Assembly: GCA_963675665.1 (NCBI GenBank)
Contig: OY776510.1
Span: forward strand, 339,467 to 403,466
Direction of reading: 5' to 3'
Source of the DNA: Spirochaetia bacterium
GTDB taxonomy: Bacteria; Spirochaetota; Spirochaetia; UBA9216
Length of the DNA: 64,000 nt
Translations under genes and position numbers: made by a program
Notes under the pieces: model-generated
What the model saw: only the letters and a program-made list of their open reading frames with translations
Told to the model about the DNA's origin: nothing
Database searches by the model: none
Shown here: positions 7,154 through 38,067 of the stretch, in pieces
Position numbering within the stretch: the first letter of the stretch is position 1
Layout: each line of letters begins with the position of its first letter

Positions 7154-7224
7154 AAAACACTACAATCACTACCAATACGGGTACAAAATAATTTTGTACC
7201 CGTATAATTATATCATTTCCCTAA

Positions 7225-9707: not shown

Positions 9708-10241
9708 ACTACAATGCTTACATTTTATCAAGAAAAACATTATAAGATTTCACATAACTATAAAAAGTTTCAAATGCTGGGCAGGTCACTTATTTTCAGG
9801 ATGCAGCCTTATAGCATAAACCTAAATGAAATTATTTGTTTTTTTAAAAAAAGCATAAGAATTTCTACTTTTTGCAATCATTTCAACTCATTTAATGAAA
9901 ATGATCTTATCGTCCTTAGATAATTCAAAAAGAGTGTATGCAAACACATTAATGACGAATAAAGGGACATTAAAATATCTTCCGGGAAACATTTTGAAAT
10001 CAGGGTAGTGCCAAGTTTTTACATCTGAGAGAAATAAACTTTATAAAAAAAGTAACCCCGTTTTAAAAAGTTTTGACTGATAATGAAGCAAGCCTGCCGG
10101 ACAGCTCTTGCCCGGATTAACAAAGTGCCGGGTTTTTTATGATCTTCCTTGAAGAACAATCTGAAAATTATAAGTAACCAAAAGGAGCTCAATCAGCTGA
10201 CATAACTAGTTTTTTAAATTGTTATTAAATTTAAAATATAT

Positions 10242-10952: not shown

Positions 10953-11005
10953 TTATAGCTCCTTGAAAATCCTATCTTATTACACAAATAATGTTTCATA
11001 TAATT

Positions 11006-11023
11006 TGGTATTATATATTACCA
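11006..11023. promoter_or_regulatory. near-palindrome TGGTATTATATATTACCA in divergent GntR/HMGL promoter region (candidate FadR-type GntR operator)
   Basis: The TGGTA...TACCA arms fit the TGGT-N-ACCA logic of FadR-subfamily GntR operators. Position is 50 bp upstream of the GntR start and 180 bp upstream of the HMGL-like gene. Confidence 0.3.
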
Positions 11024-11204
11024 GAAACATGTTTATACTTCAACACTGAATTTTCTGCTTCTTGTACATATTAAAATTCAGCAAATCTAACCAATATTAT
11101 TCTATAACCGACACTTTTCATAAACCTTGTTTTTTAAATTGTTAATTGACAAATATATTACTTTTATATATGTTATATATAACAGAATAAGGAGGAAAAT
11201 CCAC

Positions 11205-23105: not shown

Positions 23106-23137
23106 ATATTTCTCCCGTCCGTTCTGATCTTGATATT

Positions 23138-24496
23138 CTAGTGATACGACGGACCTATCAGCTTTTCAGGAAGCCAGGTTATAATCTCCGGAAAAACTAT
23201 ACAAAGTACCAGCACCAGCATGATAATAAGAACAAAAGGAATAACTCCTTTTATTATATCACCCATGGTAAGCCCCAGTTTGGGATCAGCTGTCCCTTTA
23301 AGCACAAATATCGACATGGCCATAGGCGGCGTCTGAAAAGCCATCTGAAGGTTTATACAAATCATCATTCCCGCCCACAGGGGATTAAAACCAAGCTGAG
23401 TAAGTATCGGGGAAAAAATCGGAACAATGATAAATACAATACCTATCCATTCTATGAACATCCCAAGCAGAAATACAATAAGCATAATAACCGCAAAAGA
23501 GGCCCATTTGCCGCCGGGAACTGCAAGGATGAGCTTTGTTACAACATCTCCTGATCCGGCGCTCATAAATATTCCGACAAAAGCATAACATAAAGCAGCT
23601 ATTATAACAACAAAGGAACTTACCCTAAGGGTTTCGATCGCGGCATGCTTAATAAGGCTCCAGCTGAATTTCCTGTATATTATCGCCAGAATAACTGCTG
23701 CAAGACTTCCTACAGCGGCAGCCTCGGTAGGAGGCGCCATTCCTGAAAAAATTGTACCCAAAACAGCAATAATCAGGGCAACCGGAGGAACAAGGGATTT
23801 CATAAGTTTTACGAATTTGGCCATAGAAAACGGAGTTATTTCACTTTCAGACATTGCAGGTCCCGCTTCCGGCTGCAGACGGCACCTTATTGCAATATAT
23901 GCAACATAGAGCGCCGAAAGCAGCAGTCCGGGGAAAATAGCGCCCATGAACATCTGGCCGATCGAAAGCCCGGCCTGGGGTCCGTAGACTACAAGCATTA
24001 TACTCGGAGGAATAAGAATCCCCAGGGTTCCGGAGGCTACTATGGTACCTGCTGCAAGCGGCTTGTTATATCCGCGTGTTATCATGGGACCTAACGCTAT
24101 AAGCGTAAGTATGGTAACGGAAGCCGCAATTACCCCCAGGCAAGCAGCAAGGATAGTCCCGAATATAACGGTAACTATGGCAAGTCCGCCCTTAAGACCT
24201 CCGAGCGATTCGTACAGACTTTCATACAGCGTTTTCGTTATTCCCGAATGCTGGAGTATTACCCCCATAAAAGTGAACAGAGGTACCGCCAGATAAGGAT
24301 AATTAAGCGAAAGGCCGTAAAAACGGCTGTAAAGAATGTGAAAAGTTGTTTCAGGCCCGAAAACGAGAAATCCGACAATGAACGAAACACTTCCGATTAC
24401 AAAAGCGATGGGGAAACCGGTTAAGACCAGTGCAAAAACTCCCCCGAGCATTAAAAAGGTTACGAGTTCTGCGCTTATATCAATCAATTTTCTCAC
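23138..24496 (-). CDS. dctM: TRAP transporter large permease subunit
   Basis: 452 aa, 12-TM DctM family. Confidence 0.85.
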   Translation of the reverse strand: MRKLIDISAELVTFLMLGGVFALVLTGFPIAFVIGSVSFIVGFLVFGPETTFHILYSRFYGLSLNYPYLAVPLFTFMGVILQHSGITKTLYESLYESLGGLKGGLAIVTVIFGTILAACLGVIAASVTILTLIALGPMITRGYNKPLAAGTIVASGTLGILIPPSIMLVVYGPQAGLSIGQMFMGAIFPGLLLSALYVAYIAIRCRLQPEAGPAMSESEITPFSMAKFVKLMKSLVPPVALIIAVLGTIFSGMAPPTEAAAVGSLAAVILAIIYRKFSWSLIKHAAIETLRVSSFVVIIAALCYAFVGIFMSAGSGDVVTKLILAVPGGKWASFAVIMLIVFLLGMFIEWIGIVFIIVPIFSPILTQLGFNPLWAGMMICINLQMAFQTPPMAMSIFVLKGTADPKLGLTMGDIIKGVIPFVLIIMLVLVLCIVFPEIITWLPEKLIGPSYH

Positions 24497-24998
24497 CCCT
24501 TATCAAAAAATAAAAATCTCGAATAAATTTAGCCAATCCCTGCAGAATCAGCATCAACAACCCCAGGGCGAATATAATTCTGTACGGAGCCGCCGGAGGA
24601 TACCAGAAGCTGTTGAACATCACCTCATTAACCATCACAGCCTTTACAGACCACTTCACCGCAAGCTTAAACATGATGATCATCAGCGGAAAAAACAGAA
24701 TCAATGAACAGATTACATCCATAAGTGCCTGTTTTCTCTCAGACAGCTGGCTGTAGATAAGATCAACTCTGGTATGAGAATCTTTCAGATAAGTGTATGA
24801 GGCTCCGAGCAGATACAGGGCGCCTCCGGCCATACAGAGGCTGTCATAGGCCCAGATTGTAGGAGCGTTAAAGAAATGTCTGGATATGGTTTCGTACGAT
24901 CCTATCAGAACAAGGAGCACAGCAAACCACTTACCCACCTGCCCGGCTTTTTCACTTATCATATCAATCGTTTTTATCAATATTCTTAAAAAGGTCAT
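24480..24998 (-). CDS. dctQ: TRAP transporter small permease subunit
   Basis: 172 aa, 4-TM protein. Lies immediately upstream of dctM and overlaps it. Confidence 0.7.
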   Translation of the reverse strand: MTFLRILIKTIDMISEKAGQVGKWFAVLLVLIGSYETISRHFFNAPTIWAYDSLCMAGGALYLLGASYTYLKDSHTRVDLIYSQLSERKQALMDVICSLILFFPLMIIMFKLAVKWSVKAVMVNEVMFNSFWYPPAAPYRIIFALGLLMLILQGLAKFIRDFYFLIRGEKID

Positions 24999-25068
24999 GC
25001 TATGACTCCTTATAAAACAGGCCCCCGCTGCCGTTTTGACAGTAGGGACCCGTATTAAAAATAGTTAA

Positions 25069-26142
25069 TTAATGAACTGCGTCGTATGCTTCACCATATT
25101 CTTTCATCGACTGGTAGATTTTGCCGAAAATAGGATCTTCCGTAGCAGACTTCTCTTTATAGAAGGCTGCAGCTTCTGCTGTAAGAGCTTCTTCAATGTC
25201 GGACGGTACCTTGTATACTTCTACACCCGCTCCCCTGAATTTCTCAATAGCGTTTACTGATTCATAAACAAGGTATTCATGCTGGGCCTGGGTCCATCTG
25301 TCTATTTCACTCTGAACAATTTCCTTCAGATCATCCGGAAGTTCATTCCATGCGTCCTTGTTAACAAAGAACACCTGCGGATCACTGGGAGCTCTTGTCG
25401 GTGAGATGTAAAGATAAGGCGCTACTTCATTAAAATGCATGTTCCAGTTTGTCGCCAGGGTTGAGTATTCAAAGGCGTCGATAGTACCACGCTGCATGGC
25501 TTCATAACATTCGCTGCCCGGGATTATAACGGTTGCCGCACCCATTCTCTTAAGTACTTCACCTCCGTCGCCCATACATCTTGCCTTAAGACCTTTAATA
25601 TCCGCAAGACTTTCAAGCTTGACTTTGGAATGAAAGAAAACTTCTTCCGGGAGCGGAGACAGCGCTCCGGGGAACGTGATTACATCATAGCCTTCCATCA
25701 TTTCATTCATCAGGTCAGCTCCGCCGCCGTAGTTGAACCAGGTTCTAAGCGATTCTCCCGGTAGTCCGCCCGGACGGGAGCTTATAAGGCCGGCTGCAGG
25801 CCATTTATCCAGATTGTACATCGGACAGGTATAACCCATCTGAAGAACACCTTCGTTAATGGCATCAAGTTCTTTGTATGCCGGAACAATCGAACCTCCG
25901 ACAAACGGTTTAACCTCAAGTCTTCCGCCGCTGGCAAGCGTGATGGCTTCACAGCATTTATCATGAAAAATCTGTGACGGATCAGTTGCCGGTCCATGTC
26001 CTGAAGATTTCCAGACAATCTTTTCAACCTTCTTTACAGGTTCATCACCTGCCGCTGCAGTTTCTTTTTCTGCACAAGAAGTCATCCCGAACACAAGAAG
26101 CACAGCAAGCAGAATTAATACAGCTTTTTGTCTTTTAAACAT
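25069..26142 (-). CDS. dctP: TRAP transporter solute-binding subunit, DctP family (lipoprotein)
   Basis: 357 aa. Signal peptide with lipobox (GMTSC); DctP-family fold motifs. Confidence 0.8.
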   Translation of the reverse strand: MFKRQKAVLILLAVLLVFGMTSCAEKETAAAGDEPVKKVEKIVWKSSGHGPATDPSQIFHDKCCEAITLASGGRLEVKPFVGGSIVPAYKELDAINEGVLQMGYTCPMYNLDKWPAAGLISSRPGGLPGESLRTWFNYGGGADLMNEMMEGYDVITFPGALSPLPEEVFFHSKVKLESLADIKGLKARCMGDGGEVLKRMGAATVIIPGSECYEAMQRGTIDAFEYSTLATNWNMHFNEVAPYLYISPTRAPSDPQVFFVNKDAWNELPDDLKEIVQSEIDRWTQAQHEYLVYESVNAIEKFRGAGVEVYKVPSDIEEALTAEAAAFYKEKSATEDPIFGKIYQSMKEYGEAYDAVH

Positions 26143-26190
26143 CTATTCCCTCCTGAATAATTAATAATGAGCTGCGGGATTTCCGCCGAC

Positions 26191-27024
26191 TCAATAATCC
26201 AAAAAAATACTGCTTCCGGTGCTGTTATGAAAAAAACTGCTGCCTTCACGTTCAAGCCTCTTCATTCCATCAACACCGGTACAGTGAGAAACTCCCAGTA
26301 TTTTAATATTGTCGTTGCTGAGATATTTAATGGACATCTCAAGGTTCTCACCAGAAGCCTCAACCAGGTGAGTTCCCCCGAGAACCGCATATACAGGCTT
26401 ATCAAACTCTGCATATACAGTATCAATCATATTTTTAACCCCCGGATGAGAGCATCCAAGCAACACGACCATGCCCAGAGGAGTTTCTATTGCGATTAAA
26501 ATTTCATCGTTAAAAGGATCGCTTACAAACCGGTTGTTTTTTTTCAGTTTAAAGCGGGAATTAATTGTTTCGTCTGTATTACTGCGAATAAAATCCGTAA
26601 TTATAAAGATTCCGTTCCCAAGATCTGTCTTCCGGCTTTCAATAAAGCTGTGTTTGATATTTTTTTCCGTCAAATCCGCTTCAATGAAATTGTTTCCAAG
26701 GTATTCATATGAATTGTTCCGGTATCCGTATTTTTCTTCGAAAAAACCGTTTCCTAGAAAAAGTTTAAAATCATCGTTTATATCAGCCAAAGCCATCAGA
26801 CCGCCGGTGTGATCATAGTGACCGTGGCTGAGTATAACCTTCTCAACCCTTCTCAAATCCAAATTGAGCTGGGCAGCATTGTATAAAAAAGCATCAGTCT
26901 GCCCTGCATCGAACAACAGCATCGAACCATCCTTTTCGATGCAGAATGAAATGCCATGCTCGGTTTTTAACCCAAGGTGTTCACCCCGGCTGTTTTCAAT
27001 CAACGTAGTAATCTTCAATGGCAT
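26191..27024 (-). CDS. MBL-fold metallo-hydrolase
   Basis: HxHxDH motif (SHGHYDHTGG) and downstream His/Asp ligands. Confidence 0.7.
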   Translation of the reverse strand: MPLKITTLIENSRGEHLGLKTEHGISFCIEKDGSMLLFDAGQTDAFLYNAAQLNLDLRRVEKVILSHGHYDHTGGLMALADINDDFKLFLGNGFFEEKYGYRNNSYEYLGNNFIEADLTEKNIKHSFIESRKTDLGNGIFIITDFIRSNTDETINSRFKLKKNNRFVSDPFNDEILIAIETPLGMVVLLGCSHPGVKNMIDTVYAEFDKPVYAVLGGTHLVEASGENLEMSIKYLSNDNIKILGVSHCTGVDGMKRLEREGSSFFHNSTGSSIFLDY

Positions 27025-27046
27025 AATGCTTTTTATTCTCCTCTTT

Positions 27047-27745
27047 TCAGTTGCTTTGCATTGACCTCCTGATATCCTCTACGGCATTATTCAGATGCTC
27101 CAGCATCGCCGCTTCCGCTTTTTCAGGATTGCCGGCCTTTATGGCCTTTACAATGGCTTTATGCTCACCAACGGTTTTCTCTATTCTTCCCGGAACATGC
27201 AGACTTGAAATCCACCCTTCCGGAAGCGATTTGGTCATCGCTTTCATTATGAAATAAAGGGTCCTGTTTTTGGTTGATTTCGCGAGCAGTTCATGGAACC
27301 TCTCATCACACTTTATAAGGCTCCCGGTGCTTCCCCCCGGCATTTCCGCCTCAAAATCGCTACAGGCTTTCTCCAGCTTTTCGATATCATGATCATCAGC
27401 TTTCATAGCGGAGTGCGCAGCAGCTTTCGGATCGATAATCAGCCTTACTTCAAAATGATCAAAAATAGATTCTTCATTTGATCTAAGCCATTCCTGAAAA
27501 GCCGCCAGCTCATGCTGGATCGAATCAGCTATAAAGATTCCCTTTCCGTGCTTAACGGAAACATACCCGGTTGCTTCAAGAATCCTGACAGCTTCCCTTA
27601 TTGAAGACCTGCTGACTTCAAGTTTTTTTGTCAGTTCATTCTCTGAGTAAAATTTATCGCCCGGGGAAAAGCCGTCTTCGCTAATCATCTGCTTGATTGC
27701 TTCGATAACCCGATCCGACAGTCTGATTTTTTTTATCGGTTCCAT
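27047..27745 (-). CDS. GntR family transcriptional regulator (FCD subfamily)
   Basis: wHTH (ENELTKKLEVSRSSIREAVRILEATGYV) plus FCD domain. ATG at 27745 is preceded by AAGGTGG; the track's GTG at 27754 is less likely. Confidence 0.8.
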   Translation of the reverse strand: MEPIKKIRLSDRVIEAIKQMISEDGFSPGDKFYSENELTKKLEVSRSSIREAVRILEATGYVSVKHGKGIFIADSIQHELAAFQEWLRSNEESIFDHFEVRLIIDPKAAAHSAMKADDHDIEKLEKACSDFEAEMPGGSTGSLIKCDERFHELLAKSTKNRTLYFIMKAMTKSLPEGWISSLHVPGRIEKTVGEHKAIVKAIKAGNPEKAEAAMLEHLNNAVEDIRRSMQSN

Positions 27746-27759
27746 TTTTACCACCTTAT

Positions 27760-27907: not shown

Positions 27908-28052
27908 ATGATAATGAAATTAAATCCGTGAGTCAATTCAACTTTTTATTCAGTGATTAGTTATCAAATCCGCATGTAAATAAAAAATAAACCCCGAATC
28001 AACTCTTTCGAATTCACCCGGGGCTGTCGGTATGCAGGAAAACCGAATCTGC

Positions 28053-28832
28053 CTAATACCCGCTCTCAATCGTCTGGCCGCTGATTATTTTTATTCCGCC
28101 GCTGGTGCCCAGCCTTGTAGCTCCGGCTTTGATCATTGCAACAGCATCATCAAATGTCCGGACCCCTCCGGCAGCCTTTACTTCGGCATGTGCACCTACA
28201 GTCTTTTTCATCAGCGCAACATGTTCGGGTTTTGCACCGGCAGTTGAGAACCCGGTTGAGGTTTTTACAAAGTGCGCCCCCGTTTCCTTGCAGATCTGAC
28301 AGGCAAGAATAATTTCCTCTTCCGTAAGAAGGGCGGTTTCTATTATGACTTTCAGTTTCGCCCTCTGGCCGCATGCCCGAAGGACCCAAAGCACATCGTC
28401 TTTAACAAGTTTCAGGTCCCGTGATTTAAGGGCGCCGATATTCATTACCATATCGATTTCGTTTGCCCCGTCCTCAATAGCATGACGTGCTTCAAAATGT
28501 TTGCTTCGACTGTTCATGGCGCCGAGAGGAAAGCCTACAACGGAACAAACCTTTACATCCGTTCCCCGAAGGTTCCCGGCACAGCGTTCAACCCAGGTTG
28601 TATTCACGCATACTGAATAAAACCCGTACTCTTTAGCCTCGCTGCAGAGCTTGTCTATATCCTCAGCTGTCGCCTCAGGCTTCAGCAATGTATGATCTAT
28701 ATATTTGGCCAGTTCCGAAGGCCTAATGCTCAAGCTATCTCCGGTGTTTTTCCCGGTAGAAAAAGCCGGTTCAGCTTTCAGCCTGCTGACAACCTCTTTG
28801 GTTATGCTCTCAATCAGTTCATTTTCATCCAT
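28053..28832 (-). CDS. deoC: deoxyribose-phosphate aldolase with ~40-aa N-terminal extension (putative encapsulation peptide)
   Basis: Short-type DeoC core (KYIDHTLLKPEAT, VCVNTTWV, KVCSVVGFPLGA, FVKTSTGF). It is preceded by the amphipathic helix MDENELIESITKEVVSRLKAE and a low-complexity linker that free-standing DeoC lacks. Confidence 0.85.
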   Translation of the reverse strand: MDENELIESITKEVVSRLKAEPAFSTGKNTGDSLSIRPSELAKYIDHTLLKPEATAEDIDKLCSEAKEYGFYSVCVNTTWVERCAGNLRGTDVKVCSVVGFPLGAMNSRSKHFEARHAIEDGANEIDMVMNIGALKSRDLKLVKDDVLWVLRACGQRAKLKVIIETALLTEEEIILACQICKETGAHFVKTSTGFSTAGAKPEHVALMKKTVGAHAEVKAAGGVRTFDDAVAMIKAGATRLGTSGGIKIISGQTIESGY

Positions 28833-28837
28833 AATTT

Positions 28838-29338
28838 TTATCCGTTTCCCCTTTCCACAGCCATCATTTTATTAATCCTCGGCCAGTGCCTGCCGCCTTC
28901 GAAGCGTGTCTCAAGCCATATTTTTACCATTTCGCACAGCTCCCGGGGCTGGTGCAGCGGTCCTCCGAGTGTTAATACATTTGCGTTATTGTGTAATCGG
29001 CTGTTTTTCACCGTTACTATATCATAACACAGAGCGGCGCGTATACCTCTTACCTTGTTGCAGACCATCGACGATCCTATTCCGGCGCCGTCTATCATTA
29101 TTCCGCGCGAATCATCTTCAGCGGCCACCTTTCTGGCAACCTTCACCGCATAATCAGGGTAATCCACGCTTTCTTTTGAAAAAGTGCCTACGTCCTCCAC
29201 CCTGTAACCGAGCGTTTCAATATATCTTTTCAGGATTTCCTTGGATTCGAAACCTCCGTGGTCCGAGCCGATATATATCTTTGTAATCTTATCGGTACTG
29301 TTCTTTTCACTGAAATCAACACTGTTATACATAATCAC
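28838..29338 (-). CDS. rpiB: RpiB/LacA/LacB family sugar-phosphate isomerase
   Basis: 166 aa. IGSDHGGFE and GxGxG motifs of ribose-5-phosphate isomerase B. Confidence 0.8.
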   Translation of the reverse strand: MIMYNSVDFSEKNSTDKITKIYIGSDHGGFESKEILKRYIETLGYRVEDVGTFSKESVDYPDYAVKVARKVAAEDDSRGIMIDGAGIGSSMVCNKVRGIRAALCYDIVTVKNSRLHNNANVLTLGGPLHQPRELCEMVKIWLETRFEGGRHWPRINKMMAVERGNG

Positions 29339-29607
29339 CCCGCTGTTGTAATTTCATCAATTATTCCGACAATTACCGTCCGTATCGGTAGCCCCGACGA
29401 GTTTAAAACCAGGTTTGCCGAACCGCCCTCGTCAATAACAAGCACCCTGTCTCCCGTGCCGGCCTGCACCGTATCCACTGCGATAAAAGACGCTCCGGCC
29501 CTGCCGCCGTCCGGGGCTTCCGGCGTTACGATCAATAATTTCAGATTCTTCAGAGCTCCAATTTTCGCATCGGCGACAACAGTTCCGGTAACCCTGCCTG
29601 CAATCAT
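29335..29607 (-). CDS. BMC vertex protein (BMC-P, EutN/CcmL/PduN family)
   Basis: 90 aa. MIAGRVTGTVVA... GxVxxT motif and EutN_CcmL fold. Confidence 0.85.
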   Translation of the reverse strand: MIAGRVTGTVVADAKIGALKNLKLLIVTPEAPDGGRAGASFIAVDTVQAGTGDRVLVIDEGGSANLVLNSSGLPIRTVIVGIIDEITTAG

Positions 29608-29876
29608 ACTTCCGCCTTTTCCAGCTGATCAATAATACCGATTACCGCGGCATCAGCCGGATTAAACTGATTTCTCATCGACATCGCGGCCTCTCTGCCG
29701 CCCTCGTAAATCACCAAATCGCCGGGACCCGCCTGGACCGTATCGCAGGCAACTATCGGAGGGCCCTTTTCTTTCATTTCATCATCAAGCGGCTGGATAA
29801 GAAGCAGGATTTCTCCTTCAAAAGATTCCACCTTGACGGAACATACAACCGAACCCGTTACTCTTGCTATCTTCAT
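29604..29876 (-). CDS. BMC vertex protein (BMC-P, EutN/CcmL/PduN family)
   Basis: 90 aa. MKIARVTGSVVC...DTVQAGPGD; paralog of the adjacent BMC-P. Confidence 0.85.
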   Translation of the reverse strand: MKIARVTGSVVCSVKVESFEGEILLLIQPLDDEMKEKGPPIVACDTVQAGPGDLVIYEGGREAAMSMRNQFNPADAAVIGIIDQLEKAEV

Positions 29877-29888
29877 ATCTCAACCGCC

Positions 29889-31307
29889 TCAGACTATCCT
29901 GAAATTATCAACCAGAACGCACCGCCGTTCCCTGGTAAATGTCCTTGCCCTGGTGAACCCTTCCCCGGTAGGGCTGGCTATCGTAAAAGACGTGAACCCT
30001 GAACCGCCGTAACCCATACCGTTGAAATTCGAACCGTTTTTAACAAACAGCGAACAGTTCATAATTCTGGCCATTTTTGAGAGCTTGTCGATGTTGGTTG
30101 AATGTATCGACGCGCTGTGCCTGAAACCGTGTTCAACTTCAAAAGCAAAATCAATCGCTTCGTCTACATTGTTCATTCTTACAAGCGGGATTACGGGCAT
30201 CAGCTGCTCGGTCCATACCAGGGGATGAGAACCGTCGACTTCGCACAGCAGGATTCGCGTTTCCTCCGGAATATCAAGCCCTATCATTCCGGCAATTACC
30301 GATGCGTTTTTACCAACATATTTTTTGTTTATCGCACCTTCATCGCCTTTTCTTCCGGGCCGTTCGATAACCATATCCGTAACCGCCTTAATCTGTTCCG
30401 AACCCAGTTCAAAAGCTCCCTGTCTGCACATTTCCGTTTTCAGAAGGTCGGCCACCTGCCTGACGACAAAGATTTCCTTTTCGCAGATACAAACGATATT
30501 GTTGTCAAAACCTGTGCCGGCAACTATGTCCCTTGCGGCTTTAGGAATATCAGCTGTTTCATCAACAACTACCGGCGGATTTCCGGGACCGGCGGCTATT
30601 ACTTTTTTTGAGGACTGCCGCGCAAGGTTAACCACTGCCGGACCGCCCGTAACCGTAAGCAAGTCTACCAGCGGGTGCTTCATAAGCATCTGACCGGACT
30701 CTATTGTAGGTGCATCAACAGTAGTTATTACGTTATCAGGGCCCCCGGCTTCGGCAATTGCCCTGTTCAATATGCCTACCGTAAAAACCGATACCTTTTT
30801 AGCCGCCGGATGCGGGTTAAAAACCACCGTATTGCCGGCGGCAAGCATACTGATGGAATTATTGATTATGGTTTCGGTCGGATTAGTACTGGGCGCAATT
30901 GCCCCTATTACGCCGTACGGCGCATTTTCCACCAGCGTCAGCCCGTGATCATCGGTAAAACTCTGCGGCTCCAGGTCTTCCACGCCGGGAGTTAAATCGG
31001 CGGCAAGGGCGTTCTTTTTTAATTTATCTTCATACCGCCCCATTCCTGTTTCTTCCACAGCCATGGCGGCCAGTTTTTCCACGTTGGCATGAACTGCTGC
31101 TCGCATTTCCTTTATCATCTTTCGCCGGACTTCCAGACTTGTCTTCCGGTAAACGCCGAATGCTTTCGAGGCCTCATAGACGGCCTTGTTGATATCAGGA
31201 AAGACTCCGGGCACACTGTAAGCCGCCGCTTCTTTCCTGCCGTCGGTATTTAATTCCTCAATTACATTTTTCACTATCTCACTGACAGCTTTTTCATCAA
31301 TTTCCAT
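29889..31307 (-). CDS. CoA-acylating aldehyde dehydrogenase (EutE/PduP-like) with N-terminal encapsulation helix
   Basis: 472 aa ALDH fold with catalytic-Cys region NNIVCICEKE and AAGPGNPP. N-terminal amphipathic helix EKAVSEIVKNVIEEL. Confidence 0.85.
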   Translation of the reverse strand: MEIDEKAVSEIVKNVIEELNTDGRKEAAAYSVPGVFPDINKAVYEASKAFGVYRKTSLEVRRKMIKEMRAAVHANVEKLAAMAVEETGMGRYEDKLKKNALAADLTPGVEDLEPQSFTDDHGLTLVENAPYGVIGAIAPSTNPTETIINNSISMLAAGNTVVFNPHPAAKKVSVFTVGILNRAIAEAGGPDNVITTVDAPTIESGQMLMKHPLVDLLTVTGGPAVVNLARQSSKKVIAAGPGNPPVVVDETADIPKAARDIVAGTGFDNNIVCICEKEIFVVRQVADLLKTEMCRQGAFELGSEQIKAVTDMVIERPGRKGDEGAINKKYVGKNASVIAGMIGLDIPEETRILLCEVDGSHPLVWTEQLMPVIPLVRMNNVDEAIDFAFEVEHGFRHSASIHSTNIDKLSKMARIMNCSLFVKNGSNFNGMGYGGSGFTSFTIASPTGEGFTRARTFTRERRCVLVDNFRIV

Positions 31308-31860
31308 TGAAAAACCCCTTAAGGTCCGGATGCGGGCCCGGTATTATCACTCTGCTGTAAAGCATGCCCTTGCTGAAAAGCGGTTCTGCCGCTGCGTCAA
31401 CCGCAGGCTGTACATCGCTTACCGGCCCGTTTATCATCAAAATTCCCCGGCCGCCTGTTTCGTTCCCTGCCTTGATGGATACTATGTCGATTTCAGCCTT
31501 CTTTGCGGCCCTGTCAGCGGCTTCTATGGCGCCGGCAACGGACACTGATTCGACTATACCCAGCGCGTCGGGGGCCCGGGGGGCGCGGAACGTCTGCAGG
31601 GCCGGCAGAATACTACCGTCCAGAGCAGTGAGCAGCAGATGATCAAGTATCATGCTGCTGTTTTCAACAGCCCCGATTCCGGCATCAAGCGCTATTTCCG
31701 TCGACGCGACATCGCCGGTAACAAGAATCAGGAATTTACCCGGATTGACAATGTCCGCCTTCAATACTGAAACCGGAGCCGACTTTATCATTGCATCAAG
31801 GCACACATAACCGTCTGCGATGCTGAGCAGTTCAAGAACACCAAGAATTTCAGCATTCAT
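31297..31860 (-). CDS. BMC-T shell protein, tandem-BMC-domain PduT-like
   Basis: 187 aa with two PF00936 repeats. Alignable end-to-end with PduT (ILGVLELLSIADG...PGKFLILV...). Confidence 0.75.
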   Translation of the reverse strand: MNAEILGVLELLSIADGYVCLDAMIKSAPVSVLKADIVNPGKFLILVTGDVASTEIALDAGIGAVENSSMILDHLLLTALDGSILPALQTFRAPRAPDALGIVESVSVAGAIEAADRAAKKAEIDIVSIKAGNETGGRGILMINGPVSDVQPAVDAAAEPLFSKGMLYSRVIIPGPHPDLKGFFNGN

Positions 31861-32144
31861 TTTCTGTATACTTCCCTTCCGTTTTCAACTACAGAATCGA
31901 CAATTCCTACTATGAGCGCATCAACGGGTTTGTCGATCGTAGAGGGCGTCTGCCTTGTTGACGAGCCCTGTGAAACCATAACAATCTCGTCTTTACCGGC
32001 GCCGATTATATCCAGCGCTATCATGTCGCCGCCTGCCGTTTTGCCTTCGGGCGTCAGCGGGGACACAACCAGATACGCCGGCGAATCAAGTCCGTCCGCT
32101 CTGACTGCCGCAACAACCGTGCCGCTTACTTTTGCCAGCAGCAT
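31857..32144 (-). CDS. BMC vertex protein (BMC-P)
   Basis: 95 aa EutN/CcmL-like (MLLAKVSGTVVAAV...DIIGAGKDE). Confidence 0.8.
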   Translation of the reverse strand: MLLAKVSGTVVAAVRADGLDSPAYLVVSPLTPEGKTAGGDMIALDIIGAGKDEIVMVSQGSSTRQTPSTIDKPVDALIVGIVDSVVENGREVYRK

Positions 32145-32446
32145 TATTTTAAGCCCGCCTTTGAATAAACGATCTTTCCGTCGATTTCCAGATTATCAAC
32201 TATGGCTGTTATTGTCGCGTCGCTCGGTTTTCCACTTGTAACATCAGTCTGCCGGCTGCTGCTTCCGGTCACATAGAATACTATCTCGCCCATCCCTGCG
32301 CCTACGGCATCCATTGCGACAATAAAATCGTTTTTACCTTTCATTGTCTTCGGATCCAGTTTTTCAACCAGAAGGAATTTAATTCCGTCAAGCCTCGGCT
32401 CTTTCATAGTCGAGACTACCGTGCCGACCACTTTTGAAAGTACCAT
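32144..32446 (-). CDS. BMC vertex protein (BMC-P)
   Basis: 100 aa EutN/CcmL-like (MVLSKVVGTVVST...DAVGAGMGE). Confidence 0.8.
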   Translation of the reverse strand: MVLSKVVGTVVSTMKEPRLDGIKFLLVEKLDPKTMKGKNDFIVAMDAVGAGMGEIVFYVTGSSSRQTDVTSGKPSDATITAIVDNLEIDGKIVYSKAGLK

Positions 32447-32449
32447 CGG

Positions 32450-32749
32450 TTACTTCTTGCCTTCGGCTCTTCCAAGCGGATAGACAGCGTCAACGCTTTC
32501 ATGGGGCCTGGGTATAATACTCACTGAAATAATTTCGCCCACACGCTCTGCTGCGCGGTTGCCCGCATCAAGAGCAGCCCTGACTGCCGCCACATCTCCC
32601 CTTATCACGGACGTTGTATACCCGCCGCCGATTTTAACCTGGCCGATGAGTTCAACATTGGCCGCTTTTACCATTGCATCCGAGGCTTCAACCATTGCGG
32701 CGAATCCTCGTGTCTCTATCATTCCCAAAGCATTTTCAGTTATTGCCAT
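32450..32749 (-). CDS. BMC-H hexameric shell protein (PduA/EutM-like)
   Basis: 99 aa. ALGMIETRGFAAMVEASDAMVKAANV...GGGYTTSVIRGDVAAV. Confidence 0.9.
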   Translation of the reverse strand: MAITENALGMIETRGFAAMVEASDAMVKAANVELIGQVKIGGGYTTSVIRGDVAAVRAALDAGNRAAERVGEIISVSIIPRPHESVDAVYPLGRAEGKK

Positions 32750-33376
32750 TTATTCCTCCCTTCCGTTTATATCAGCAAGCCTTGCTTCGACCACATCCTT
32801 GCTTACAAGCACTTCGGCCTCTTCACCCGCGATATAAACTCTTCCGTATTTACCATACCCAGTTACATTTATAATCTTGATAGTGGACGCTTTCTCTGCT
32901 TCATTAGCCGCATAAAAAGCATATCCGGCCGGTTCGATCTCAAGAACAAACAGGGTATCTCCCCTCAGCACCATATTCCCATACCGGACTTTATTTACAA
33001 GCTGTGCATGGTGATCACTGACGTTTTTGATAAGCTGGCTTGTAAGAACGCGGGGTTTCATCCTGCTGGCCTCTTCCAGTTTCAGCTCTTCAAGGACGGC
33101 ACTCCCGGCCTGCCTTACATCGGCCTGACTGTCTGAATGGACCTCCAGCAGGCCGAAGGAGCGCTCAACTATCTGTATACCCGGGACCACATTCGTGGCC
33201 TTCAGGGCAATATCGGTAAGCCTGTTTATTTCTATTCCCGGTGAGATCTCAATAAACGCGCAGGCCTGGCCTCCCACAGGGAAATACCCCCGTGAAATAG
33301 TGCACATATACGACGCCATCTGAAGCTGCAGCGAATCAATAAAATTATAAGTTCGAAGATCTACGTTGTTCATCAT
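32750..33376 (-). CDS. BMC-T shell protein, circularly permuted tandem BMC (EutL/PduB-like)
   Basis: 208 aa; permuted BMC-domain signatures. Lacks the RHxH motifs of PduL, which excludes a phosphotransacylase. Confidence 0.55.
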   Translation of the reverse strand: MMNNVDLRTYNFIDSLQLQMASYMCTISRGYFPVGGQACAFIEISPGIEINRLTDIALKATNVVPGIQIVERSFGLLEVHSDSQADVRQAGSAVLEELKLEEASRMKPRVLTSQLIKNVSDHHAQLVNKVRYGNMVLRGDTLFVLEIEPAGYAFYAANEAEKASTIKIINVTGYGKYGRVYIAGEEAEVLVSKDVVEARLADINGREE

Positions 33377-33382
33377 TCACAC

Positions 33383-33670
33383 TCAGCCGTTCAGCGGCAG
33401 TTTCGCGTCTACAGAAGAATCCGGCCGGGGTATCAGGTGTACTGAAATAACCTCCCCAATTTTTTCGCCGGCCCTGCTTCCTGCATCAAGAGCAGCCTTT
33501 ACAGCGGCAACGTCTCCCCGGATTACGGCGGTAACGTATCCCCCGCCGGTTTTTTCCCAGCCTTTCAAATCGACTTTCGCAGCTTTTACCATCGCATCCG
33601 AAGCTTCAACAAGAGCGGCGAACCCCTTTGTTTCTATCATACCTAATGCTTCCGTCTGTATGTCAGCCAT
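33383..33670 (-). CDS. BMC-H hexameric shell protein (PduA/EutM-like)
   Basis: 95 aa. ALGMIETKGFAALVEASDAMVKAAKV...GGGYVTAVIRGDVAAV. Confidence 0.9.
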   Translation of the reverse strand: MADIQTEALGMIETKGFAALVEASDAMVKAAKVDLKGWEKTGGGYVTAVIRGDVAAVKAALDAGSRAGEKIGEVISVHLIPRPDSSVDAKLPLNG

Positions 33671-33681
33671 ACAACCTCCTG

Positions 33682-34461
33682 TTAAACAGTAAATAATTCT
33701 ATGCCATAATCCCTGATAATACGTTCATATTCTTCAGGAATACCGGTATCCGTTATAATTGCACTGAAATCTTCAAGTGAAGCAAAATAATTGGTCTGGA
33801 CCTTTCCGAATTTACTCGAATCAATCAGCAGAATCCTTTTCTGGCTGGATTCCATTATCGCTTCCTTTACAGCCCTCTCGTGGTGAATCTTTGTCGTCAC
33901 TCCCAGCTCTGCGGTTGCTCCGCTGGCCGAGACAAAGGCTGTAACCGCCCGTGTCCGCCTGATAAGAGACAAACCCTCGGGACTTTCAAACATCTGGGAA
34001 CGTTCATGAAACAACCCCCCGGCAAACAGCACCTGGCAGTTTTTCTTTCTGGTCATTTCATTCAGCACATTAAGCGAGTAGCAGAGTACTGTCAGGGGAA
34101 AATCAGCCGGAATCAGCCTGGAAACCAGTTCCATCGTCGAACCGGAATCGAGAGTGATAACATCGTCGGGGTCGATAAGGGAAACAGCTTTTTCGGCTAT
34201 CCTCTTTTTTTCGGCCATCCTGATCGTTCCCGCGACAGGCAGAGTATAATCCGCTTCCGGGTTTCTGCCTGTCGTTCCGGAATTGTAAAATACCCCTCCG
34301 TGCCTTGAAAGAACAAGATTCTGATCTTCAAGGATTCTCAGATCACGGCGTATCGTCATCTCTGATACCTGCAGCTTCCCGGAAAGATACTTTACATCCG
34401 CTGATTTGTTTTCTTCGAGATATTCAACTATCGAATTCAGCCGCCTGATTTTCTTGTTCAT
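33682..34461 (-). CDS. DeoR/GlpR family transcriptional regulator (first gene of BMC operon)
   Basis: 259 aa. N-terminal HTH (ADVKYLSGKLQVSEMTIRRDLRILE) plus DeoR C-terminal sugar-phosphate sensor domain. Stop lies 11 bp from the first shell gene. Confidence 0.8.
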   Translation of the reverse strand: MNKKIRRLNSIVEYLEENKSADVKYLSGKLQVSEMTIRRDLRILEDQNLVLSRHGGVFYNSGTTGRNPEADYTLPVAGTIRMAEKKRIAEKAVSLIDPDDVITLDSGSTMELVSRLIPADFPLTVLCYSLNVLNEMTRKKNCQVLFAGGLFHERSQMFESPEGLSLIRRTRAVTAFVSASGATAELGVTTKIHHERAVKEAIMESSQKRILLIDSSKFGKVQTNYFASLEDFSAIITDTGIPEEYERIIRDYGIELFTV

Positions 34462-34656
34462 TGCAATAAGTCAGTGTAGATCCGGAAGTGTTATTTGTCA
34501 AACATTTTATCATTTTTTGTTATTATTTTGTTACTTTTAACATTTTGAGTTTTGAACTGATCCAATAAAAAAGGAGGCTGTCGCCCCCTTATATCCAATA
34601 ACGCAAATCCTGCTCAAATTACTAATCCAAGCAAGACTTCGAGAACTGATTTTTTT

Positions 34657-34678: not shown

Positions 34679-35668
34679 CTATTTAAGAAGCTCGTCCAGT
34701 TTGTCCCTGTAAACTTCCCATGAAGTTGCGATAAGTGTCTCACAGTCGCTGTATTCGGCAACCCAGCCGAGCTTCTCTTTGGCCATTGCAGACGATGCAA
34801 CAAGTTTTGCAGGGTCCCCGGGTCGTCTGCCTACAATTTCGGAAGGAATCTCGCGTCCTGAAATTCTGCGTGCTTCTTCCAGCAGTTCCAGCACCGACAG
34901 CCCGTTTTCAGAACCAAGGTTAACGGTAAGGCTCTCGTCTTTCTCATTAATATATTTCAGGGCCCTGACATGGGCATCGGCCAGGTCAGTCACATGAACG
35001 TAATCACGCACCCCGGTTCCGTCTTTTGTGTCGTAGTCGTTACCGAAAATCTGGAGCTTTTCACGTATCCCCGCGGCAGTCTCCATTATCACAGGAAGCA
35101 GATTAGCCGGGTTGCGTTCAAGGCCCCTGATTTCACCGTCAACATCGTAGCCGGCTGCATTGAAGTATCTTAAAGCTGCATATTTCAAGCCCTTAAGTTT
35201 ATCATACCAGGAAAGGAACCGTTCAATCTCAAGCTTGGTGAAACCGTAGTAGTTTTCCGGGTTTTTAGGGTGCTCTTCGTCTACCGGAAGCCTTTTCGGT
35301 TCACCGAAAATAGCTGCTGACGAGGAAAAAACAAGCTTTTTCACACCGGCATCACAAAGAGCGTTAAGAATATTAATGGTGCCTGAGATATTGTTAACCG
35401 AATACTTCTCCGGATGAATCATCGACTCGCCTGCGGCTTTGAAGGCGGCAAGATGCACTGCCGCATCAAACTTATCAGACTGGAATGCATCTGAAAGTTC
35501 CAGCTGATTCAGAATATCCCCCTCAATAAACCCGGCTTCACTGAAAAGATTTTCTTCACGGCCCGAGGAAAGGTTGTCGAATACGGTTATTTTATGTCCC
35601 GCGTTTAAAAAAGCCTTTACAACATGGCTGCCGATATACCCGGCGCCGCCTATTACCATTACTTTCAT
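34679..35668 (-). CDS. galE: UDP-glucose 4-epimerase
   Basis: 329 aa SDR family. N-terminal MKVMVIGGAGYIGSHVV and YxxxK active site. Confidence 0.85.
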   Translation of the reverse strand: MKVMVIGGAGYIGSHVVKAFLNAGHKITVFDNLSSGREENLFSEAGFIEGDILNQLELSDAFQSDKFDAAVHLAAFKAAGESMIHPEKYSVNNISGTINILNALCDAGVKKLVFSSSAAIFGEPKRLPVDEEHPKNPENYYGFTKLEIERFLSWYDKLKGLKYAALRYFNAAGYDVDGEIRGLERNPANLLPVIMETAAGIREKLQIFGNDYDTKDGTGVRDYVHVTDLADAHVRALKYINEKDESLTVNLGSENGLSVLELLEEARRISGREIPSEIVGRRPGDPAKLVASSAMAKEKLGWVAEYSDCETLIATSWEVYRDKLDELLK

Positions 35669-35688
35669 TTAATACTCCCGTCCCTGCA

Positions 35689-36966
35689 CTACAATACTCT
35701 GCAGGCAGGTTTATTTCTGATTCCGAGCTCTGCGCAACATCCTTCTCCAAAAATACGCTCCATGTAAACAGTATACTCGTTTACACGGTTTACTGGAATA
35801 TATGCCTGGACAGTTCCGGCAAATCCTCCGCCCTGCACACGGCAGGCGCCGTCGCCGGATAGAAACTGCTCACTGAATGCGAGTCCGATACTCAAAGCCT
35901 GTTCAGCCGGCCTTCTTCCGATATATATGTTCTGAAGATATTTAAACGACGAATTACCCGATTCATTTACCAGCCTTAAATATTCGGCAAAATCATCATT
36001 TTCAAGAGCCTTAAACTGGGCAACTGTCCTTTTGTTTTCGTTGATAAAATGAAAAGCCCGAAGAACGGCCCTGTCTCCGCAGCTTTCGCGAATACCCCGG
36101 ATATTATCCGACAGCTGGTCCATTGTGATTCCGCGGCAGACATCCCTTCCGAGCCTCCCGGCTGCACAGCGCATTTCTTTCGGTATTGCGCTGTATTCAT
36201 CCGACAAATCTGCGTGGCTCGATCCGACTGCGGTGACCATCAGGCTGTAGCCTTTCGCGGCAAAACTGTAGCTGATCGGTTTTATAACAGGCGCTTCCGG
36301 ATTTTTAAAATCGATGCCCACTACACCGCCTGCAGCACAGGCTACCTGGTCCATCAGGCCGCAGGCCTTGCCGAAATATTGGTTTTCGGCAAACTGACCT
36401 ATCTGTGATACCTCGACATAGCCGACTTTTCCGTTGTTATACAATTCGCTCAACACCGTTCCAATCAGAACTTCTATTGATGCCGAAGAGCTTAACCCGG
36501 ATCCGGGCAGGACCTTTGAATCCATATTGCAGTTAAACCCGCCGGTTTTATAACCAAGCTCTTTGAAGCGGAAAAGAATGCCTCTGAGCAAAGCTGTAGT
36601 TGTGTCTTTTTCGCCTGCACGCACCGAAAGATCTGCCGTATCGAGCGTTACGGGATCATAGCCTTCGGAGATAAACCTAACCTTGCTTCCATCCGTTTTG
36701 GAAGCAACACATACTGAATCAAGCTCTACACTTCCTGCCAGTACATTTCCATGATTGTGATCCGTATGGTTTCCTCCCAGTTCAGTACGTCCCGGAGTAC
36801 TGATCACCATTGCTTCCGTATCGCCGAATAACTCATTATGCATATTCAACAATTTAAGATACCGTTCTCTTTGGGCCGGAAGCGCAGCCTCATTGTAGAT
36901 TTCACCAAGAACGACATCGGCTGAACAGGTTGTTACATCCCTGATAAGTTCTTTAATCGTCTTCAT
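35689..36966 (-). CDS. galK: galactokinase (GHMP kinase)
   Basis: Galactokinase signature PGRTELGGNHTDHN, PGSGLSSSASIEV and GGGFAG motifs. Confidence 0.75.
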   Translation of the reverse strand: MKTIKELIRDVTTCSADVVLGEIYNEAALPAQRERYLKLLNMHNELFGDTEAMVISTPGRTELGGNHTDHNHGNVLAGSVELDSVCVASKTDGSKVRFISEGYDPVTLDTADLSVRAGEKDTTTALLRGILFRFKELGYKTGGFNCNMDSKVLPGSGLSSSASIEVLIGTVLSELYNNGKVGYVEVSQIGQFAENQYFGKACGLMDQVACAAGGVVGIDFKNPEAPVIKPISYSFAAKGYSLMVTAVGSSHADLSDEYSAIPKEMRCAAGRLGRDVCRGITMDQLSDNIRGIRESCGDRAVLRAFHFINENKRTVAQFKALENDDFAEYLRLVNESGNSSFKYLQNIYIGRRPAEQALSIGLAFSEQFLSGDGACRVQGGGFAGTVQAYIPVNRVNEYTVYMERIFGEGCCAELGIRNKPACRVL

Positions 36967-38006
36967 TCTGCTGCCTCCCTGCTGAAGTGGATTTCCGGTA
37001 CTGCCCGGAGGGTTGAAGCCGCACCTTCCGCGCTGATATCCCTTTGCGGCATTGCAAGAAGCTCATACCCAACCATAAATTTCCTTATTTCGGCGGATCG
37101 CAGCAGCGGAGGGAAATAGTGAAAGTGAAAATGTACTTCAGGATACTCGCCGCCGTCGGTAGGTTTCTGATGGATTCCCATCGAATACGGAAATCTTGTC
37201 TGAAAAAGATTATCGTATTTGATGCCGAGCAAACGCAGAACGACTGCAAGATCCGTCTTCTCTTTATCATTCATAAGCGAAATACTGCCCATATGCCGTT
37301 TCGGCAGGATCATTGTTTCATATGGCCAGACGGCCCAGAACGGAACCAGAACTACGAAGCTTTCATTTTCATGAATTACCCTGCTGCCGTCTTCAAGTTC
37401 CTGCTTCAGATAATCGCATAGCATACATGAATTCTTCTCTTCATAATGCATTTTTTGATTTAAAAGTTCCATAGCCGGAAGCACCGGTATTTCACGCTCG
37501 GCCCATATCTGGCCGTGGGGGTGCGGATTTGAGCAGCCCATCATCGAGCCCCGGTTTTCAAAAATCTGTACATGATTTATGAATTCCATTGAACCGAGTT
37601 CTATATACTGGTCAACCCAAAGCTGAACTACATTTTTTATATCTTCTGTTTTCATCAATGCAAGGGTAAGATCATGCCTGGGAGAAAAACAGATTACACG
37701 GCATAAACCCTGTTCGGTTTTAGCCTGCAGAAGTCCGTTCTTATACACGCCTTCTTCTGTTTTCGGGAGAATGGCCATAAAATCATTATCAAAAACAAAA
37801 GTCCCGCTATAGTCGGGGTTCTTTATATCTCCGGCCCTTTTATTCCCCGGACAAAGATAACAGCCCGGATCATATTCCGGTAATCTTTCAGTAACGCTCT
37901 TGTCGACCTGTCCGTTCCACGGTCTTCTTGTCCGGTGCGGCGACACCTTTACCCATTCTCCCGTCAGGATATTCAGTCTGCGGTGAGGGTCTTCATTGAA
38001 ATTCAA
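36963..38006 (-). CDS. galT: galactose-1-phosphate uridylyltransferase
   Basis: HPHGQ active-site motif; N-terminus aligns with E. coli GalT (NFNEDPHRRLNILTGEWV). Likely TTG start at 38006 behind GGAGG gives 347 aa. The track's 38066 start falls inside the operator palindrome and was rejected. Confidence 0.8.
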   Translation of the reverse strand: MNFNEDPHRRLNILTGEWVKVSPHRTRRPWNGQVDKSVTERLPEYDPGCYLCPGNKRAGDIKNPDYSGTFVFDNDFMAILPKTEEGVYKNGLLQAKTEQGLCRVICFSPRHDLTLALMKTEDIKNVVQLWVDQYIELGSMEFINHVQIFENRGSMMGCSNPHPHGQIWAEREIPVLPAMELLNQKMHYEEKNSCMLCDYLKQELEDGSRVIHENESFVVLVPFWAVWPYETMILPKRHMGSISLMNDKEKTDLAVVLRLLGIKYDNLFQTRFPYSMGIHQKPTDGGEYPEVHFHFHYFPPLLRSAEIRKFMVGYELLAMPQRDISAEGAASTLRAVPEIHFSREAAE

Positions 38007-38039
38007 ATTTCTGCCTCCGGTTTGAATATAAATAAATGC

Positions 38040-38067
38040 TTGACAATAATATGTACACGTGTACAAT
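38040..38067 (+). promoter_or_regulatory. sigma70-like promoter (TTGACA-16-TACAAT) overlapped by perfect 14-bp palindrome TGTACACGTGTACA (38052-38065), a putative LacI-family operator
   Basis: -35 at 38040-38045 and -10 at 38062-38067, upstream of the LacI-family gene. The palindrome fits the LacI/GalR-family operator architecture and lies between the divergent regulator and galTKE. Confidence 0.45.

Follow-up and report, generated by a model that had tools for sequence, protein, structure and literature searches.

A Spirochaetia operon for an SPU2-subtype bacterial microcompartment, likely devoted to deoxyribose 5-phosphate breakdown

Introduction

Bacterial microcompartments (BMCs) of the sugar-phosphate-utilizing (SPU) class are among the most widespread BMC classes, and they are thought to enable anaerobes to draw on deoxyribose from DNA in their surroundings and at the same time to confine acetaldehyde. 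The stretch of Spirochaetia DNA analyzed here (64,000 nucleotides of contig OY776510.1; hereafter the window) carries a compact cluster of shell-protein and enzyme genes at positions 28053 to 34461. This locus raises three questions: whether it is an intact microcompartment operon, to which type it belongs, and which chemistry its shell would enclose. Judged by its sequence, the locus is an intact microcompartment operon of the SPU2 subtype, arranged as one transcription unit with a full shell kit and three cargo proteins, namely deoxyribose-5-phosphate aldolase (DERA, or DeoC), a CoA-acylating aldehyde dehydrogenase (AldDH) and a protein of the RpiB fold. The operon likely serves the catabolic breakdown of deoxyribose 5-phosphate (dR5P) to acetyl-CoA and glyceraldehyde 3-phosphate (GAP) inside the shell.

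To our knowledge, a native SPU organelle has yet to be isolated whole, and the SPU2 subtype is without any biochemistry. A preliminary description of the locus went further and held that no SPU microcompartment had been characterized at all. That statement is outdated: the core enzymes of an SPU6 system and a complex of its DERA with its ribose-5-phosphate isomerase homolog (RPI) were purified in 2024, and the purified DERA was active on dR5P (Dwyer, Sutter and Kerfeld, Commun Biol 7:1562; PMC11585597).

Results

Twelve co-directional open reading frames (ORFs) occupy the minus strand from 34461 to 28053, with the DeoR gene transcribed first and the DeoC gene last. The transcription order is DeoR, BMC-H, BMC-Tdp, BMC-H, two BMC-P, BMC-Ts, AldDH, two further BMC-P, the RpiB-fold protein and DERA, and the successive intergenic gaps measure 11, 6, 0, 3, −1, −4, −11, 12, −4, −4 and 5 nt. 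The twelve genes and their order agree with the preliminary description, all ORFs being present at the expected coordinates on one strand and with tight spacing. Hidden Markov model scans, among them those that it had proposed, gave matches above the Pfam cutoff for 11 of the 12 proteins; the permuted BMC-T fell below its cutoff but matched CcmP strongly. A span of 4.3 kb encodes four proteins of the PF00936 fold (two BMC-H, one BMC-Tdp and one BMC-Ts) together with four PF03319 proteins, the generic hallmark of a BMC locus. Such a cluster is far more than chance would produce.

Both ends of the operon are well marked. A promoter-like site, TTGACA-17 nt-TACACT (34473–34501, minus strand), was found by consensus scan and is a pattern match only; it lies 12 nt 5' of the DeoR start codon and just 3' of the galE terminator at 34571–34590. 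At the opposite end, 28 nt past the DERA stop codon, a terminator-like hairpin (27990–28025) with a U-rich tract (whole element 27976–28025, minus strand) folds at −21.6 kcal/mol (z = −3.45 versus shuffles). This element was located by sequence reading and folding, its loop being too long for a pattern-based terminator scan. A search for operator-like repeats around the promoter returned only weak AT-rich repeats, and an Rfam scan of the whole window revealed no riboswitch or leader RNA within or ahead of the operon. The GC content of the operon is about 49–50%, against 41–46% in the flanks.

The SPU2 assignment was made from gene counts, gene order and the closest solved or curated homologs. 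In the catalogue of Sutter et al. 2021 (Nat Commun 12:3809, Supplementary Data 2), SPU2 comprises 53 loci, mostly from Bacteroidetes and Spirochaetes. Their only enzymes are AldDH, PF01791 and PF02502 proteins, and their shells are built from one or two BMC-H, a BMC-P triplet with an extra BMC-P, a BMC-Tdp of the CcmP clade and a BMC-Ts, the last accompanied by PduS in only a quarter of the loci. Encapsulation peptides occur on every SPU2 AldDH, on about one DERA in two and on one RPI in three. Our locus matches this description on every item, and the SPU class named in the preliminary description thus stands upon comparison with the catalogue. Shared features are the enzyme trio, two similar BMC-H, four BMC-P, a CcmP-clade BMC-Tdp, one BMC-Ts, the N-terminal peptide of AldDH, the Spirochaetes/Bacteroidetes hosts and the absence of PduS, which is missing from about three quarters of the SPU2 loci. 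Nothing of substance sets the locus apart: its BMC-Ts lacks the pore cysteine that is present in about 80% of SPU2 BMC-Ts, its RPI lacks an encapsulation peptide, as do about two thirds of SPU2 RPIs, and a DeoR gene is its first cistron.

The shell kit, encoded entirely on the minus strand, comprises hexamer, trimer and pentamer proteins. The two BMC-H proteins are 71% identical: BMC-H 1 (33383–33670; 95 aa; PF00936, 99.8 bits, E = 8e-29) has the interface motifs KAAK and PRPD, and BMC-H 2 (32450–32749; 99 aa; PF00936, 97.8 bits, E = 4e-28) has KAAN and PRPH. Four paralogous BMC-P proteins, the pentamers of the vertices, share 29–44% pairwise identity. BMC-P 1 (32144–32446; 100 aa; PF03319, 87.1 bits, E = 1e-24) and BMC-P 2 (31857–32144; 95 aa; 80.7 bits, E = 1e-22) are 44% identical; BMC-P 3 (29604–29876; 90 aa; 90.8 bits, E = 8e-26), first of the pair beside the signature enzymes, and BMC-P 4 (29335–29607; 90 aa; 77.8 bits, E = 9e-22) are adjacent and lie directly 5' of the RpiB-fold and DERA genes. 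BMC-Tdp (32750–33376; 208 aa) is a permuted tandem-BMC trimer of the double-stacking CcmP type. It remains under the Pfam cutoff (19.3 bits versus 24.5 needed), scores 268 bits with the CcmP model NF053796 and aligns with the CcmP structures 4ht5 and 5lsr (E = 3e-65). Its gate residues Glu71-Arg72 correspond to E69/R70 of CcmP, and the pair is invariant in 17 orthologs.

The remaining shell protein, BMC-Ts (31297–31860; 187 aa), is a PduT-like tandem-BMC trimer that matches PF00936 twice (117.8 bits, E = 2e-34). Its Asn39 aligns with Cys38, the 4Fe-4S ligand of Citrobacter freundii PduT (PDB 3pac; 3n79 was also aligned). Because the pore cysteine is replaced, no 4Fe-4S site is expected from the sequence, and the PduT-like label of the preliminary description applies to the fold and not to the iron-sulfur cysteine. 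At the same pore position, orthologs have Asn in seven Spirochaetia loci, Ser in five Bacteroidota loci and Cys in a single locus (L013, 4661–7343), which carries PduS and triose-phosphate isomerase inside it; the Asn and Ser loci all lack PduS. Among the SPU2-like loci compared, the BMC-Ts pore cysteine therefore tracks the presence of PduS.

The signature enzyme, DERA, is encoded by the last gene (28053–28832, minus strand; 259 aa; PF01791, E = 2e-18). It scores 285.6 bits against the deoC model TIGR00126 (cutoff 117.3), with the match beginning at residue 40. Asp127, the Schiff-base residue Lys190 and Lys219 are invariant in 23 orthologs. They align with D102, K167 and K201 of the Escherichia coli enzyme, in a reference sequence that was checked through its numbering. 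The preliminary description had made its DeoC assignment hinge on the Schiff-base lysine, and this residue is present together with its two partners. Upstream of the enzymatic core, a 39-aa N-terminal extension precedes the deoC model and all DERAs in the PDB, which align from residue 40. Within it, a conserved helix motif (MDENELIESITKEVVSRLK) precedes a variable linker rich in Ser, Ala and Pro, and the pattern M-D-E-x-E-L-I-E-x-I-T-K-E-V is kept across Spirochaetia and Bacteroidota.

Such extensions go together with shell genes. We classified 80 DERA loci from reference genomes by shell genes, DERA extension and RPI type. All 26 loci with shell genes nearby combine an RPI of the Asp type (described below) with either an RPI–DERA fusion or a DERA extension of 40 aa or more, whereas among the 53 scorable loci that have no shell genes nearby, 47 have an extension of at most 13 aa (Fisher p = 2e-15). 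Fusions occur in L024, L029 and L078. The six exceptions (L011, L012, L037, L064, L066 and L072) have long, encapsulation-type DERA extensions and no shell genes within the flank of up to 10 kb. In L011 the DERA gene lies 352 nt from the contig end, and L037, L064, L066 and L072 also have an Asp-type RPI; the six are probably split loci or satellites.

AldDH (29889–31307, minus strand; 472 aa; PF00171, E = 3e-41; NF011927, 663 bits) has as its closest solved structure the BMC-associated CoA-acylating enzyme 5jfl (448 bits), and its Cys273 aligns with the catalytic cysteine of 5jfl and 5jfn. The N-terminus, MEIDEKAVSEIVKNVIEEL, is the most amphipathic 14-mer of the protein (hydrophobic moment 0.65), and this amphipathic helix (residues ~3–20), which resembles an encapsulation peptide, is kept in orthologs. 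Domains, catalytic residues, N-terminal extensions and the catalogue all support the chemistry put forward in the preliminary description, in which DeoC would split dR5P into acetaldehyde and GAP and AldDH would convert acetaldehyde to acetyl-CoA.

The third cargo gene encodes the RpiB-fold protein (28838–29338, minus strand; PF02502, 173.8 bits, E = 2e-51), of 166 aa when read from a GTG codon that overlaps the stop codon of BMC-P 4. Orthologs start at a Met two codons further on (MY...), and translation probably begins at the ATG at 29332, which would give a protein of 164 aa. In an alignment to solved RpiB structures, Asp83 and Ala85 occupy the positions of the catalytic Cys66 and Thr68 of E. 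coli RpiB, while the fold and the phosphate-binding residues are retained, with His99, Asn100, Arg133 and Arg137 kept. The resulting Asp/Ala/His pattern is invariant in 19 BMC-linked orthologs. Ser89 falls at what we take to be the position of Glu75 in Mycobacterium tuberculosis; thus neither Cys66 with Thr68 nor the Mycobacterium-type Glu75, the residues of functional RpiB proteins, is found. Only about 18 residues precede the core, without an encapsulation helix. The preliminary description was right about the PF02502 fold and about the gene's place beside DeoC; the substituted residues do not fit a working ribose 5-phosphate (R5P) isomerase. In SPU6, the corresponding RPI is essentially inactive on R5P and forms a stable complex with DERA that leaves DERA kinetics unchanged, and the Cys-to-Asp change is stated to be common to all SPU RPIs (PMC11585597). 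By analogy, the protein of our locus is probably not an R5P isomerase but a scaffold for, or partner of, DERA.

We also considered that the substrate is another or an additional sugar phosphate, with the Asp83/Ala85 protein acting as an isomerase of new specificity that feeds or drains DERA. Besides Cys66/Thr68, all phosphate and sugar binders are kept (Asp26, His27, His116, Asn117, Arg150 and Arg154), the score exceeds the TIGR01120 rpiB cutoff, the invariance of the Asp/Ala pair across phyla suggests selection on the site, and the aspartate could serve as a general base. Activity on a rare sugar phosphate was explicitly left possible by Dwyer et al. (PMC11585597). Several points from the same study speak for a structural role: the negligible R5P isomerase activity of the SPU6 homolog and its lack of effect on DERA, the precedent of LacA, the Asp-bearing subunit of LacAB, which is a non-catalytic partner, and the distribution of RPI, which is absent from SPU5 and fused to DERA in SPU3. 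Taken together, these observations make an active isomerase improbable. We know, moreover, of no pathway link between the product of RPI and DERA.

Apart from AldDH, DERA and the RpiB-fold protein, the operon encodes no enzymes; Pfam scans found in it no phosphotransacylase (PTAC), alcohol dehydrogenase or PduS. In the larger ORFs across the 64-kb window, scans with PF06130, PF01512 and PF00121 likewise found no PduL/Pta, PduS or triose-phosphate isomerase. A complete core like that of the propanediol (PDU) or ethanolamine (EUT) utilization systems is accordingly lacking, since neither the operon nor the scanned window ORFs provide a PTAC or an alcohol dehydrogenase that bears an encapsulation peptide. 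The word "complete" in the preliminary description is apt for the minimal SPU2 set; it does not extend to cofactor recycling, for which PTAC, alcohol dehydrogenase and PduS are all absent. Two window genes were considered as cargo and rejected: an iron-containing alcohol dehydrogenase (50900–52081; Pfam match to residues 9–387 of 393) and a pyruvate formate-lyase (52950–55178; domain from residue 15) lie at least 16 kb off and leave no room for an N-terminal extension; the dehydrogenase also has none at its C-terminus, and its gene is on the opposite strand.

With these three recycling proteins absent, cofactors presumably exchange through the gated trimer. Loci without PTAC typically carry a BMC-Tdp, a possible exit for acetyl-CoA (PMC11585597). 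A broader possibility is that SPU2 in this spirochaete clade is a stripped-down, "cofactor-open" metabolosome that has lost all known devices for internal recycling, the Fe-S pore cysteine (here Asn) included, passes NAD(H) and CoA/acetyl-CoA through the gated CcmP-like trimer, and uses the RpiB fold as a DERA scaffold or as an isomerase of other specificity. We put this forward tentatively, as an idea more doubtful than probable.

The locus has close counterparts in other genomes. The nearest DERAs belong to metagenome-assembled genomes of Spirochaetales and other Spirochaetia, at no more than 81% identity, the top value coming from a Spirochaetales genome. From the first BMC-H to DERA, the order H-Tdp-H-P-P-Ts-AldDH-P-P-RPI-DERA is kept in 14 or more genomes of Spirochaetia and Bacteroidota, including seven Spirochaetia loci (L002–L004, L007, L008, L010 and L013) and five Bacteroidota loci (L014 and L016–L019; Lentimicrobiaceae, Bacteroidales and Draconibacterium), with identities of 55–88%. 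Catalytic and gate residues are conserved in 17–24 orthologs. This conservation, as read from the sequences, indicates purifying selection on the operon. Degeneration in related genomes, which the preliminary description had named as a finding that would undo its interpretation, was not seen: gene order and motifs persist at those identities in two phyla, and the cluster therefore appears to be neither silent nor decaying and to have moved between phyla.

The same comparison bears on the idea that the operon is a horizontally acquired relic, silent or no longer able to assemble an organelle. Its GC content is slightly above that of the flanks, the close similarity of loci in two phyla implies transfer, accessory parts have been lost (there is no PduS and no pore cysteine), and microscopy of Atribacter laminatus showed no BMCs (PMC7736352). 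A relic is nonetheless hard to reconcile with twelve intact ORFs in tight translational coupling, a promoter-like site and terminator of their own, and catalytic, gate and targeting motifs kept across at least 14 genomes at 55–88% identity. We regard it as very improbable.

Gene neighbors point to the substrate. In three relatives, deoB (phosphopentomutase) lies directly 3' of DERA on the same strand (L007, 10876–12057; L008, 9342–10523; L009, 4272–5450), and the encoded proteins score 436–506 bits, above the equivalog cutoffs. The adjacency of deoB and DERA provides independent contextual support for dR5P as the substrate; it does not appear in the SPU2 catalogue text that we read (Sutter et al. 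2021).

The position of deoB also bears on the direction of flux. In a reductive, condensing mode, AldDH would reduce acetyl-CoA as a sink for NADH, and DERA would join acetaldehyde and GAP into dR5P, as a store or for detoxification. The DERA and acylating AldDH reactions are both reversible, and the absence of PTAC and alcohol dehydrogenase leaves the locus uncommitted to the usual oxidative branch. This model was proposed by Nobu et al. 2016 for the DERA/RPI BMC loci of Atribacteria, as cited in PMC6281690, and the Atribacteria loci themselves belong to SPU2 (taxon list of Sutter et al. 2021, Supplementary Data 2). The genes tell against it in several ways: deoB supplies dR5P from deoxynucleosides, a DeoR-family sugar-phosphate regulator heads the operon, as is typical of catabolic operons, and no onward route for dR5P is encoded, the RPI-like protein being without its catalytic cysteine and unable to act on a 2-deoxy sugar. 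Both the authors of the catalogue and those of the 2024 study favor catabolism (PMC11585597). Net condensation is accordingly quite unlikely, and catabolic breakdown of dR5P is the reading that we retain.

The regulator itself (33682–34461, minus strand; 259 aa) matches PF00455 (E = 6e-44) and PF08220 (E = 4e-14). It scores 138 bits with NF007961, whose equivalog cutoff is 244, and comparably with SrlR (143.5), GlpR (139.8) and AgaR (135.1). DeoR-family genes also stand by related loci, co-directional in L002 and divergent in L003, L004, L007 and L013.

Pfam scans of the larger ORFs revealed nothing else related to BMCs in the window. Directly 5' of the operon and on the same strand lies a galT-galK-galE Leloir cluster (34679–38066, minus strand), separated from it by the terminator at 34571–34590; a putative LacI-like ORF (38093–39088, plus strand) is divergent from galT. 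On the 3' side of DERA (21750–27754, minus strand) are genes for a GntR/FCD regulator, a hydrolase of the metallo-β-lactamase (MBL) fold, a tripartite ATP-independent periplasmic (TRAP) transporter (DctP, DctQ and DctM) and a glycerate-kinase-like protein (DUF4147/MOFRL). The closest relative, L002 (10864–13106), keeps DERA, the MBL gene and the glycerate kinase gene. Because L002 is without the GntR and TRAP genes, the comparison suggests that these are an insertion in the window.

Farther away, a pyrimidine-nucleoside (thymidine) phosphorylase gene (56499–57863, minus strand), 22 kb from the operon, could supply deoxyribose 1-phosphate. The sole Rfam match in the window is a ZMP/ZTP riboswitch (RF01750; 55232–55316, minus strand; 64.7 bits against a gathering score of 39), which lies directly 5' of the genes for pyruvate formate-lyase (52950–55178, minus strand) and its activating enzyme (52237–52953, minus strand) in the classic "pfl motif" arrangement. 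The window also has a DDE transposase (PF01609 with DUF4372; 5405–6562, minus strand). It sits in a low-GC stretch (4000–12000; 36–37% versus 45–50% elsewhere), perhaps a segment that is mobile or was acquired recently. A cluster for an ATP-binding cassette (ABC) sugar transporter contains a pair of 421-aa ORFs (45649–46914 and 48144–49409, both minus strand) that resemble each other in their N-terminal regions; the former has no Pfam match at E ≤ 1e-5. Finally, an 835-aa secreted-looking protein (12694–15201, minus strand) has FlgD-Ig, Big_13 and internal CHU_C-like matches. A CHU_C type IX secretion signal was considered for it and rejected, since the match is internal rather than C-terminal, has the character of Ig-like repeats and includes no significant single stretch.

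Discussion

Built on the observed gene content, residues and conservation, the scheme that we propose assigns to the locus a direction of flux, an encapsulated core, a cofactor route and an effector for the DeoR-family protein. In the cytoplasm, nucleoside phosphorylase and phosphopentomutase would convert deoxynucleosides to dR5P, which would reach the lumen by way of the hexamer pores or the gated trimer. DERA would cleave it to GAP and acetaldehyde; the volatile, toxic acetaldehyde would be kept in the shell and oxidized by AldDH, through Cys273, to acetyl-CoA with formation of NADH, and GAP would exit to glycolysis. N-terminal amphipathic helices would target DERA and AldDH to the lumen. 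The RpiB-fold protein has neither the catalytic Cys/Thr nor a targeting peptide, and it therefore most likely rides in with DERA, as a stoichiometric partner that would help to pack the core. Exchange of NAD+/NADH and CoA/acetyl-CoA with the cytoplasm would presumably take place at the CcmP-like trimer, through its gated pore of ~14 Å. The DeoR-family repressor probably de-represses the operon in response to a sugar phosphate, dR5P being the obvious candidate.

Several points weigh against this scheme. Expression, shell assembly and the physiological substrate are predicted from the genes, and what biochemistry there is concerns the SPU6 homolog of another phylum. Atribacter laminatus, the one cultured organism with such a cluster, showed no BMC-like bodies by electron microscopy (PMC7736352). 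Neither deoB nor a deoxyribokinase gene was found among the window ORFs scanned. The regulator, being under every NCBIfam equivalog cutoff, can be placed at the family level only, and cofactor recycling depends on an assumed permeability of the gated trimer. A single-sequence AlphaFold2 model of DERA places a helix at residues 3–19 with low confidence (mean pLDDT, the model's own confidence score, 46.9), a weak result.

Comparison with the characterized SPU6 system (Chloroflexi bacterium GWB2_54_36) reveals the same core in a different shell. The two share the Asp/Lys/Lys residues and N-terminal extension of DERA, the Cys-to-Asp change of RPI, the adjacency of the RPI and DERA genes, a BMC-Tdp and the lack of PTAC. 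SPU6, in contrast, encodes only one BMC-H and three BMC-P, lacks a BMC-Ts and has a GntR/UTRA-type regulator. The extension of its DERA runs to about 70 aa, compared with 39 aa in our locus; its AldDH carries the encapsulation peptide at the C-terminus, whereas that of our locus is N-terminal, and only the SPU6 RPI has such a peptide.

With the EUT and PDU systems, the locus shares the general logic of a BMC-H/T/P shell in which the aldehyde freed by a signature enzyme is turned into acyl-CoA by an acylating AldDH. It differs from them in relying on a cofactor-independent class I aldolase that acts on a sugar phosphate, and in lacking PTAC, alcohol dehydrogenase and PduS recycling. Its shell differs as well, with a PduT-like trimer devoid of the Fe-S cysteine, a gated BMC-Tdp of the carboxysome type and four pentamer paralogs in place of one. 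SPU-type BMCs of Hodarchaeales (Asgard; bioRxiv 10.1101/2025.11.08.687404) likewise combine DERA and AldDH with BMC-H, BMC-P and BMC-Ts proteins and are proposed to use DNA-derived dR5P. The Hodarchaeales loci have a DERA–flavoprotein fusion and a pentamer fused to a disordered, DNA-binding tail rich in Lys and Arg; our locus has neither. An RPI of the inactive type, a cysteine-less PduT-like trimer and the absence of recycling enzymes have all been reported for the class before.

The locus alters nothing in what is already published on its class and subtype, on the proposed pathway and on the inactive-looking RPI. What it offers is a clean, compact and intact example of SPU2 with clear operon ends, and hence a reasonable template for heterologous expression. 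If the "cofactor-open" organization considered above were true, it would challenge the model in which metabolosomes maintain a private cofactor pool, and it would give gated trimers a defined role in transport.

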